Of a stretch of 64,000 nt of DNA, positions 10,802-12,723 are shown piece by piece (within the stretch, counting starts at the first letter, position 1; each line of letters opens with the position of its first letter). Source of the stretch: Candidatus Omnitrophota bacterium (lineage in GTDB: Bacteria; Omnitrophota; Gorgyraeia; Zapsychrales; Fredricksoniimonadaceae); NCBI GenBank assembly GCA_903860135.1, contig CAIOPG010000009.1, positions 175,805 through 239,804 on the forward strand. Direction: 5' to 3'. The notes below the pieces were generated by a model, which did no database searches, had not been told where the DNA came from, and was given only the letters and a program-made list of their open reading frames with translations. Made by a program: the position numbers and the translations under genes.

Positions 10802-12709
10802 TCAGGCTCCTTTTTCTTTTAATTCCCGCCGTAAATGCTCAACCGACTCGCGTAAAAGACGGCAATAAAGGTCAAACCCTATTGACGCAATATAACCATG
10901 CTGCTGTTCGCCCAGCAAATTCCCGGCCCCGCGGATCTGCAGATCCTCAAATGCGATATTGAACCCTGCGCCGAGATCAGTGAACTTGGCCAGTGCATCC
11001 AGCCGTTGGCGCGCCACCCCGGAAATTTGTCCTTGCTCGGGTACAATGAAATAAGCATACGCCTTAACATCCATCCGCCCCACCCTGCCACGCAGTTGAT
11101 GCAGATCCGCAAGCCCGAATCGGTCCGCCCGATTGACAATAAGCGTATTGGCATTGGGTATATCAATCCCAGATTCTATTATAGTAGTGCAAACCAAACA
11201 ATCAACCTCGCGCTTGAGAAATTTAAGCATGACCTCTTCAAGCATACGGCCCGGCATCTGCCCGTGCCCCACCGCCAGCCGCACGCGCGGTACCAGGCGC
11301 TGGATCAACCTTGCGATCGGATCAATATCCTCGACATGATTATGCAGAAAGAAAACCTGCCCTCCGCGCCTGAGTTCCTGATCTATCGCGGCGCCAATAA
11401 CCTCCTCATCAAAATGGATCATGTGGGTGGAGACCGGTATCCGGTTCTGGGGCGGTGTCGCAATCACCGACATGTCGCGCGCTCCTGCCATGGCCATATA
11501 GAGCGTACGCGGAATAGGTGTCGCTGTCAAGGTCAGCACGTCTGCCAGCAATTTCATGTGCTTAAGGCGTTCTTTAGCCGTCACCCCGAAGCGCTGTTCC
11601 TCGTCAATGATAATAAGCCCGAGATCCTTGAAGGCGACATCTCCTGACAAAAGCCTGTGGGTACCGATGAGGATATCCACTTTCCCTTCTCGGGTTTGCG
11701 CAACAATGGCTGCCTGCTCAGCCTTGGTCCGAAAACGTGACAACATCCCCACGCGCACCGGAAAATCCTGCAGTCGCTTCACAAAATTAAAATAATGCTG
11801 TTCGGCAAGCACCGTCGTCGGCACAAGGACCGCCACCTGCTTGCCAGCCATAACGGCCTTGAAAGCGGCACGCATAGCCACCTCGGTCTTGCCATAGCCC
11901 ACGTCACCACACAAAAGGCGGTCCATCGGCTGAAGGGCTTCCATATCCGCCTTGACCTCAGCGGCGGCTTTGTCTTGATCGGGCGTGGCTGTAAAAGGAA
12001 ATTTCTTTTCAAACTCAACCTGCCATGAAGTGTCCGGTGGAAAAGGAAAACCCTTCAGGCTCTCCCGCACCGCCTGAACATGCAAAAGGCCGGCCGCCAG
12101 ATGCTGGAGGCGTTTTTCGATCTGACGCTTGACCTTCTCCCAGGTCCTGCTGCCCAGCGTGAAAAGACGCGGCGGTCTTTTGGTAAAACTGATATATTTC
12201 TGCACCAGATGCAAGTCATGCCGCGGCACATAAAGCTTATCGCCGCCCTCATATTCAATGACAAAATGCGCCAGCTTCCCGGTACCAGACTCAACATCTT
12301 TGATGCCCAGGAAACGGCCGATCCCGTGGACATTGTGAACAACATAATCCCCGCGCTCAATATCAATAAAATGATTGAGGGGCATATCAGCCGTGAACGG
12401 AATAACTTTCTTATGGTCCGCCGGACGCGTGGTACGCACCGGAAGAATAATCAGCGCCTTATGCTCCCATATATTCTTGCCGGTGAGCATATTGTAGGTA
12501 TAAATACGCCGCACACAATCATCGTCCATGTCCATACGGACAGGCGCATCAAAATTAACCGGGAAGATATCAATGATACTGCCGCGCACAGCGCATTGGC
12601 CGGGCTCTGCCACATGCTTGACACGGGCATAACCAAAACGAACGAGATCAACAACAATACTTTCCAGCGGGATGGTCTGGGAAATGAAATACTGCAGGGA
12701 TTTAAACAT
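10802..12709 (-). CDS. mfd: transcription-repair coupling factor Mfd, shortened architecture (about 635 aa)
   Basis: CarD/RID motif [17 protein letters not shown]...[18 protein letters not shown]. SF2 motifs [43 protein letters not shown] and HQLRGRVGR. The ORF ends right after the translocation (TRG) region (GFDLYCRLL...). Start taken at ATG 12709; the ORF-track start 12721 is a TTG. Confidence 0.85.
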   Translation of the reverse strand: [635 protein letters not shown]

Positions 12710-12723
12710 ACTTAAAACCAATG

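Follow-up and report, generated by a model that had tools for sequence, protein, structure and literature searches.

[quoted passage not shown] Current mechanistic models assign large roles to the clamp between domains D2 and D7 and to relocation of the D1–D3 module during loading. To encircle DNA, Mfd employs its RNA-polymerase-interacting domain (RID), relay helix and motor. When D7 is removed from the Escherichia coli protein (MfdΔD7), ATPase and translocation activities are derepressed and UvrA is bound without RNA polymerase (Smith 2007, PMC1874598; Manelyte 2010, PMC3025350). The same truncated protein supports strand-specific, transcription-coupled repair both in vitro and in vivo, with D2 being essential (PMC3025350). 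The Mfd of Thermus thermophilus is naturally derepressed, and autoinhibition is not universal among Mfds (PMC13453472). In the endosymbionts Buchnera and Wigglesworthia, according to the work cited in PMC13453472, Mfd has lost both D1 and D2, and these genomes lack UvrABC.

The Mfd described here is encoded in a 64-kb window, the whole stretch of Omnitrophota DNA that was analyzed. An open reading frame runs without interruption over positions 10802–12721 of the minus strand and would encode 639 residues if counted from the first TTG. Because the homologues all begin with MF(K/R)SL(K/E)YF, we place the true start of mfd at the ATG at 12709 instead of the TTG at 12721, so that the gene spans 10802–12709 (635 codons, with the stop codon at 10802–10804), in agreement with the length of about 635 residues proposed in an earlier sequence-only reading of this DNA. 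The 635-residue product is 100% identical to the database protein P0001, and over its whole length it scores 858 bits against the TIGR00580 "mfd" equivalog, above the cut-off of 800, but only 655 against the E. coli-type model NF007966, below the cut-off of 1329. The predicted product is a half-size yet intact Mfd.

The gene is flanked by secDF, which ends at 12784, and by a surA-like gene starting at 10799, 2 nt from the mfd stop as had been claimed; no cryptic exons lie on either side, again in line with the earlier reading. The order mfd–surA–pdxA is conserved. The secDF terminator proposed beside the mfd start corresponds to a real, terminator-like hairpin with a U5 run at 12724–12766 on the minus strand (stem 12729–12766, U5 run 12724–12728; ΔG −33 kcal/mol, z = −4.3) that ends 15 nt before the mfd ATG. 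A simple terminator scan missed this hairpin. We considered it as a conserved expression brake and rejected the idea, since a comparable hairpin is absent upstream of mfd in five relatives.

A Pfam search of the short Mfd returns UvrB_inter (D2), CarD_TRCF_RID, DEAD and Helicase_C, with no match to the TRCF/D7 domain PF03461. Against the PDB, phmmer aligns residues 20–103 with residues 139–221 of E. coli Mfd and residues 110–631 with 466–987, and the family alignment stretches the D2 block to E. coli 133–221, so that similarity begins near residue 133 and not near residue 150 as first proposed. D2, the UvrA-binding domain, occupies residues ~10–91 (12437–12682; all parts of the gene are on the minus strand) and stands alone without D1a or D1b. 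It is recognized by UvrB_inter with E = 4e-16, is modeled by AF2 with a pLDDT of about 80–97, and in isolation finds its best PDB match in the E. coli Mfd D2 of the Mfd–UvrA complex (4DFC). Re-acquisition of this domain from UvrB, a candidate prompted by a "TG" signature, was rejected on scores, as the isolated D2 gives 37 bits against the D2 of E. coli Mfd and at most 31 against any UvrB.

A short variable linker of ~12 residues (residues ~92–102, 12404–12436) follows D2 and stands for about 237 residues of D1b and D3; pLDDT falls below 50 at residues 94–115. The chain then enters a conserved pre-RID segment and the RID itself (D4; together residues ~103–180, 12170–12403), and the observation that D2 runs almost straight into the RID therefore holds. 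The RID is matched by CarD_TRCF_RID (PF02559) with E = 7e-16 and by a D4 HMM with E = 9e-26, and it appears in the AF2 model as a beta-rich domain at residues 122–171, directly upstream of the motor. At the position equivalent to E. coli L499, the family alignment is hydrophobic throughout (V/F/L/I). A relay helix, modeled at residues 189–217 (12059–12145) and collinear with the E. coli 466–987 alignment, connects the RID to an SF2 translocase composed of D5 and D6 with a TRG motif (residues ~218–611, 10877–12058; Pfam DEAD and Helicase_C). The two motor domains are 57% identical to their E. coli counterparts. The Walker A GKT, DEEQ, motif VI and the TRG residues R569, R593 and Q603 are all invariant among 24 family members, and every SF2 motif quoted in the sequence-only reading is present in the open reading frame. 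The TRG residues in E. coli Mfd are R929, R953 and Q963. The protein closes with a C-terminal helix and an 8-residue tail (residues 612–635, 10805–10876; AF2 helix at 612–634). By alignment the chain stops where D6 gives way to D7 in E. coli Mfd (residue ~987–995), 16 residues after GFDLYCRLL, where about 20 had been estimated.

The AF2 model, built from an 80-sequence alignment, has a mean pLDDT of 83.9 and a pTM of 0.71, with disorder solely at residues 94–115; a model from 24 close homologues was poor (pLDDT 60) and was set aside. In Foldseek the top matches are all Mfd, with a TM score of 0.70 when normalized to the query and 0.40 when normalized to the target. HMMs for D1a, D1b, D3 and D7 find no match in the short Mfd. 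Sequence, profile and structure evidence are concordant, and the protein has no space for D3 or D7 even in compact form, the finding that would have overturned the first interpretation of the gene. Relative to E. coli Mfd, the alignments place three deletions, all at domain boundaries: D1a (~1–123), D1b together with D3 (~222–458) and D7 (~996–1148). The sequence-only reading had recognized the loss of D1a, D3 and D7 and overlooked that D1b is likewise gone.

We propose, with a probability of roughly 0.65, that this protein is a functional transcription-repair coupling factor of Omnitrophota that operates without a D2–D7 clamp, comparable to E. coli MfdΔD7 but of natural origin. The RID would attach to a stalled RNA polymerase through the beta subunit of the latter, and the RecG-like motor would translocate on the upstream duplex and drive the polymerase ahead until it leaves the DNA, the way canonical Mfd does. 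D2, joined to the conserved pre-RID segment by a tether of ~12 variable residues, would have no D7 covering it. The analysis establishes the architecture, its degree of conservation and the existence of the partner gene, and we infer from there that the protein displaces RNA polymerase, binds UvrA and is free of autoinhibition.

The window also carries the gene for the presumed partner of D2. This uvrA gene at 44128–46920 (minus strand) encodes a canonical protein with the UvrB/Mfd-binding domain (Pfam UvrA_inter, E = 4e-35) in addition to UvrA DNA-binding and ABC domains, and the interaction domain matches UvrA chains in the PDB, 4DFC_B included; the earlier assignment of uvrA to these positions is borne out. 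The D2 domain itself is as conserved as in canonical Mfds, with a mean pairwise identity of 0.39 within the short-form clade; canonical Mfds reach 0.40, and the linker has 0.15. Among 40 short forms, R42 and R58 (R165 and R181 in E. coli) never vary. In E. coli these arginines have a role in UvrA binding besides their contact with D7 (PMC3025350). Their invariance in the absence of a D7 partner argues that UvrA binding is what is retained. Other parts of the surface have diverged. At the site of E. coli F185, which belongs to a set of three residues whose joint mutation abolishes UvrA binding, most short forms have Asp or Glu, and among 40 canonical Mfds only 21 have Phe. The Gln of the D2 T-Q-R-S motif, nearly invariant in canonical Mfds, is replaced by Gly in 39 of the 40 short forms, and the D2 surface has therefore changed in this clade.

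These substitutions speak for an alternative in which the protein would be solely a remover of RNA polymerase, dislodging or restarting stalled polymerases with no coupling to excision repair, and in which D2 would serve structure or some new purpose. Endosymbionts do have Mfd forms that are not coupled to repair, as far as the work cited in PMC13453472 describes them, and lend this alternative some substance. Those forms, however, are described as having lost D2, whereas here D2 is kept and both flanking D1 halves have been removed. The invariant arginines and the undiminished conservation of D2, along with a UvrA that carries the binding domain, also speak against it. Since the endosymbionts described as lacking UvrABC lost D1 and D2, keeping D2 correlates with having UvrA. 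We therefore regard the polymerase-remover explanation as doubtful.

Lacking the autoinhibitory D2–D7 clamp, the short Mfd should resemble MfdΔD7 of E. coli or the T. thermophilus enzyme in its behavior. No D7 occurs in the protein, anywhere in the window or beside the mfd genes of relatives, and the suggestion that D2 cannot be masked by D7 stands. A "constitutively unmasked" enzyme is plausible, with the qualification that another intramolecular contact could replace the clamp. Such autoinhibition might arise if D2 or the C-terminal helix docked on the motor or relay helix until RNA polymerase binds. E. coli Mfd does have several layers of restraint, including interdomain contacts that regulate the motor; the tether between D2 and the RID is very short, and the pTM of the model suggests a fairly defined arrangement of domains. 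T. thermophilus Mfd shows, on the other hand, that a derepressed Mfd is viable, and we consider a substitute contact unlikely. How the enzyme avoids unproductive activity, a puzzle raised by the sequence-only reading, becomes less paradoxical because MfdΔD7 supports repair and the T. thermophilus enzyme is naturally derepressed. The odds seem to us evenly balanced that Omnitrophota carry out transcription-coupled repair with a 630-residue Mfd, no regulated unmasking and a D2 permanently open to UvrA.

A further alternative is a split gene, in which the missing domains, D7 especially, would be separate proteins that are encoded at another place in the genome and work in trans. The examined part of this genome is 64 kb, which is what speaks for this alternative. 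Nonetheless, the D1a, D1b, D3 and D7 HMMs give no match at E ≤ 1 among six-frame open reading frames of at least 40 residues, neither in the window nor in six loci from Omnitrophota, and the same HMMs picked up both D3 and D7 in every one of 77 canonical loci, all from non-Omnitrophota GTDB genomes; the 6 Omnitrophota loci showed D2 and D4 only. The separate D1- or D7-like open reading frame whose existence had been raised earlier was thus not encountered in either place. A tblastn search of the window with the E. coli D1a, D1b, D3 and D7 segments yielded a sole, D7-like match (E = 0.07), which we reject as chance as it lies inside a RecX gene with three RecX helical domains (Pfam). We judge a split gene very improbable.

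The short form is widespread. Two sets of 120 homologue clusters, about 240 in all and drawn from many independent assemblies, contain proteins of 614–683 residues apart from one 527-residue fragment. They are 49–87% identical and have one and the same set of Pfam domains, from which PF03461 is missing; all clusters with a name are from Omnitrophota. Among the best 150 representatives at 50% identity, short forms account for 2, and the canonical matches all carry PF03461. On the strength of these database comparisons, the short form is the normal Mfd throughout the phylum Omnitrophota and is confined to one clade. An assembly error (the truncation that the first reading had allowed for), a frameshift or a decaying pseudogene has next to no chance of explaining the gene, as the open reading frame is unbroken and adjoins its neighbors on both sides, the catalytic residues are invariant, and the same length and architecture recur across the clusters of independent assemblies, on contigs of up to 600 kb. 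A canonical Mfd of 1112 residues labelled "Omnitrophica" (P0126) was considered as a sign that both forms coexist and was set aside; its nearest named relative is Candidatus Ratteibacteria, it bears the sole "Omnitrophica" label of that kind among the matches, and we prefer to see in it a neighboring lineage or a legacy label. The possibility that short Mfds are a well-documented norm in this lineage is correct for databases but not for the literature, where our search found no paper treating Mfd together with Omnitrophota and none describing the short form.

An Mfd without D1a, D1b, D3 and D7 but with D2, fixed across a phylum, amounts to a deletion experiment performed by nature. Its domain content points to D2, the RID, the relay helix and the motor as the minimal set for the job, and these retained parts match those found necessary by experiments in E. 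coli. If the coupling-factor interpretation is true, then D1a, D1b, D3 and D7 would all be dispensable for coupling in a free-living phylum, and structural and mechanistic studies would have in this protein the smallest natural coupling factor, compact enough to suit cryo-EM and biochemistry. The short Mfd also lends support to the recent claim that not every Mfd is autoinhibited. A question that follows is how a cell copes with a UvrA-binding surface that is always exposed and a motor that nothing restrains; expression may be low, the restraint may be of a different kind, or no restraint may be needed.

The short Mfd shares orthologous D2, RID, relay helix and D5/D6 with the TRG motif with the canonical Mfds (E. 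coli, 2EYQ and 6X26; Mycobacterium smegmatis, 6AC6; T. thermophilus, 6M6A). It differs from them in lacking D1a, D1b, D3 and D7, about 513 of the 1148 residues of the E. coli protein, and therefore has neither a D2–D7 clamp nor a D1–D3 module to relocate during loading, although the DNA-encircling parts are all kept. RecG has a homologous SF2 motor with a TRG motif. The best RecG model, however, gives 400 bits against a cut-off of 718, and the short Mfd has D2 and the RID where RecG has its wedge domain. Like the Omnitrophota form, the Mfds of endosymbionts are natural, reduced and found in bacteria with small genomes, but as cited they have lost D2 where UvrABC is absent, whereas the Omnitrophota form keeps D2 and uvrA is present. 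T. thermophilus Mfd provides a natural form that is not autoinhibited by a closed D2–D7 clamp; there all domains are kept and the clamp is merely dynamic, whereas in the Omnitrophota form the clamp partner is missing. Engineered E. coli MfdΔD7 likewise lacks D7 and exposes D2, as the short Mfd is predicted to do. The engineered protein retains D1a, D1b and D3, whereas the Omnitrophota form is natural and evolutionarily fixed and has lost those domains as well.

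As judged by sequence comparison, the 635-aa product of mfd (10802..12709, (-)), hereafter the short Mfd, runs in the order D2 (the UvrA-binding domain), linker, D4 (the RNA-polymerase-interacting domain, RID), relay helix, and D5 and D6 (the translocase), and lacks D1a, D1b together with D3, and D7. Pfam recognizes UvrB_inter (D2), CarD_TRCF_RID (D4), DEAD and Helicase_C in the protein, with no match to TRCF PF03461, which corresponds to D7. The PDB sequence comparison pairs residues 20-103 with E. coli Mfd 139-221, and 110-631 with 466-987; in the family alignment the short Mfd covers E. 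coli Mfd 133-221 and 477-987. The E. coli domain limits that we used, which reportedly come from Deaconescu et al. 2006, we take to be ~1-123 for D1a, ~222-458 for D1b and D3, and ~996-1148 for D7. The sequence-only reading had listed D1a, D3 and D7 as missing, and these are indeed absent; D1b, which it had overlooked, is among the losses as well.

An AlphaFold2 model of the short Mfd (80 sequences) has a mean pLDDT of 83.9 and a pTM of 0.71, and its sole long low-confidence stretch is the linker at residues 94-115. The best Foldseek matches are all Mfd structures, with TM-scores of 0.70 when normalized to the query and ~0.40 when normalized to the target, a pair of values that is consistent with a protein about half the size of canonical Mfd. 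There is no space in the short Mfd for compact equivalents of D3 or D7. It scores 858 bits on TIGR00580, the NCBIfam Mfd equivalog (cut-off 800), which together with the RID-motor-TRG core marks it as an orthologue of Mfd; on the RecG models it stays far under the cut-offs. Two features of the canonical family are lacking, namely a complete UvrB-homology module and D7.

The ORF is uninterrupted, as had been read (10802..12721, (-); 639 aa if counted from the first TTG). All homologues begin with MF(K/R)SL(K/E)YF and a 635-aa database protein is 100% identical to the short Mfd, so the real start is not at that TTG and instead lies at the ATG at 12709 (12707-12709), ahead of which we saw no obvious Shine-Dalgarno sequence. 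Because secDF ends at 12784 and the surA-like gene starts at 10799, 2 nt past the stop codon of mfd, neither flank has sequence in which the missing domains could lie, in agreement with the earlier claim that no cryptic exons flank the gene. The terminator ascribed to secDF (12724-12766) is also real, having a stem at 12729-12766, a U5 run at 12724-12728 and a dG of -33 kcal/mol (z = -4.3); it was not picked up by a simple terminator scan, and no comparable hairpin was seen upstream of mfd in 5 relatives. The first in-frame start, TTG 12719-12721, falls within the U-run of this hairpin. Only 15 nt separate the hairpin end from the mfd ATG, which leaves no space for a promoter, so mfd-surA-pdxA-rsmA may rely on transcription that reads through from secDF.

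The missing domains are not encoded separately within the regions searched. Profile HMMs, one per domain and made from 40 canonical Mfds, were run against six-frame ORFs of at least 40 aa from the window and 6 Omnitrophota loci; those for D1a, D1b, D3 and D7 gave no match at E<=1, and those for D2 and D4 matched the mfd ORF alone in the window and in each of the 6 loci. The D3 and D7 models are sensitive enough, since both found a match in 77/77 Mfd loci of other phyla. The sole tblastn match of E. coli D1a, D1b, D3 or D7 to the window, a marginal one to D7 (E=0.07), lies inside RecX and is due to chance.

The short form is the Omnitrophota norm. A first homologue search returned 120 clusters (64-100% identity, 614-655 aa, identical Pfam set); those that carry a name are all Omnitrophota or Omnitrophica, save one labelled Elusimicrobia. 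A second, with the most divergent short representative as the query, returned 120 more of 627-683 aa and one 527-aa fragment; here the named ones were all Omnitrophota, apart from one labelled only "bacterium". When 1.84 billion 50%-identity representatives were searched exhaustively, the 150 best matches included only 2 short Mfds, the others being 975-1283 aa long. Across 80 GTDB loci and three from metagenomes, 6/6 Omnitrophota loci have the short architecture against 0/77 others, and its recurrence within the clade speaks against an artefact. The form arose through loss: D2 in UvrB and canonical Mfd is an insertion within domain 1, and the simplest reading of a D2 that stands alone is that it was left behind. 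We observed a single canonical Mfd labelled "Candidatus Omnitrophica" (P0126, HIE43247.1; 1112 aa), whose nearest named relative is Candidatus Ratteibacteria; all matches in the search that gave it carry PF03461. This protein and P0122/P0396 (MCD5390867.1), labelled "candidate division NPL-UPA2", are the closest canonical-length Mfds, and the Ratteibacteria-grouping and NPL-UPA2 lineages may bracket the deletion events. Elsewhere, an uncultured Clostridia MAG (CANRBK010000033.1) has, away from the contig edge, an Mfd ORF of just 906 aa stop-to-stop with D1b-D3-D4-D7 and no D1a or D2 HMM match, which may be a free-living case of the D2-less endosymbiont type.

The order mfd-surA-pdxA is conserved through the clade, and the block alaS...secDF-mfd-surA-pdxA-rsmA-gatCAB is common to the window and Candidatus Aceula. 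Positions 1-25000 show long-range synteny with the Aceula locus (Mfd 64% identical) in the order alaS, his genes, trpE, secDF, mfd, surA, pdxA, rsmA and later gatCAB; in Aceula, rpsP and yajC lie directly upstream of secDF. The recA-recX-alaS cluster lies at 21097-25348 (-), placing the DNA-repair genes recA, recX, mfd and uvrA all inside 36 kb. At ~26000-44000, the G+C content falls from ~0.52 to 0.35-0.47 across a type IV pilus/type II secretion-like cluster (PilM-like, secretin, T2SSE ATPase, T2SSF) and genes for ExbB/MotA-like and large TPR proteins. Two Omnitrophota metagenome contigs have giant ORFs beside mfd (2417, 2923 and 8492 residues) with scant or absent Pfam annotation.

The 24 family members compared show no variation in Walker A, DEEQ, motif III, motif VI or the TRG residues (R929, R953 and Q963 in E. 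coli), and the RNA-polymerase-contact position L499 is hydrophobic throughout the family alignment. Among 40 short forms, mean pairwise identity is 0.72 for D5, 0.62 for D6, 0.50 for RID and 0.39 for D2 (canonical Mfds: 0.40), and 0.15 and 0.14 for the linker and C-terminal tail. Taken by itself, D2 is closer to the E. coli Mfd D2 of the Mfd-UvrA complex 4DFC than to any UvrB, which marks it as an inherited Mfd D2. R42 and R58 are invariant (40/40); their E. coli equivalents, R165 and R181, take part in the D2-D7 interface and also in binding UvrA (PMC3025350), and in a protein without D7 the latter is the one known role left that would explain their retention. At the F185 position most short forms have Asp/Glu, though only 21/40 canonical Mfds have Phe there, and D2 residues 76-79 (~12473-12484) bear a clade signature, T-G-K-(S/N) versus the nearly invariant T-Q-R-S of canonical Mfds (Gly in 39/40 short forms, Gln in 39/40 canonical). 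The F185 change and the Gln-to-Gly replacement would count against retained UvrA binding by D2.

What we observe here is the architecture, how it is conserved and that its partner is encoded nearby: the uvrA gene noted earlier in the window specifies a canonical UvrA with the UvrB/Mfd-binding domain. Following established Mfd biology, RID would dock on the polymerase beta subunit, the motor would drive the stalled complex forward, and D2 would recruit UvrA. Omnitrophota Mfd certainly has no D2-D7 clamp; the functional consequence of that loss we infer, and some other contact may restrain the motor. The sequence-only interpretation is supported in part, the feature being standard across the phylum and not peculiar to this genome. 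In E. coli, removing D7 derepresses Mfd and lets it bind UvrA in the absence of polymerase, yet strand-specific repair persists both in vitro and in vivo; when D2 function is lost, repair is no longer enhanced (PMC3025350). T. thermophilus Mfd is derepressed by nature, and Mfds of endosymbionts without UvrABC are described, in work cited there, as having no D1 or D2 (PMC13453472). In the loaded state, DNA is encircled by RID and the translocase together with the relay helix, which is then unfolded; the short Mfd keeps all three. Taken together, this evidence indicates that the short Mfd keeps an experimentally sufficient set.

In the literature searched, we found no paper pairing "Mfd" with "Omnitrophota" and no description of such a short Mfd, and database names go no further than "transcription-repair coupling factor" or "DEAD/DEAH box helicase". 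Although the short Mfd does not represent a new type of system, it offers a clean example of a minimal Mfd from nature, with direct bearing on the current debate over autoinhibition and loading. The engineered E. coli ΔD7 protein retains D1 and D3, whereas the short Mfd has neither. Thermus Mfd has all domains, in contrast to a protein without D1a, D1b, D3 and D7, and whereas endosymbiont Mfds lose D2, the short Mfd keeps it.
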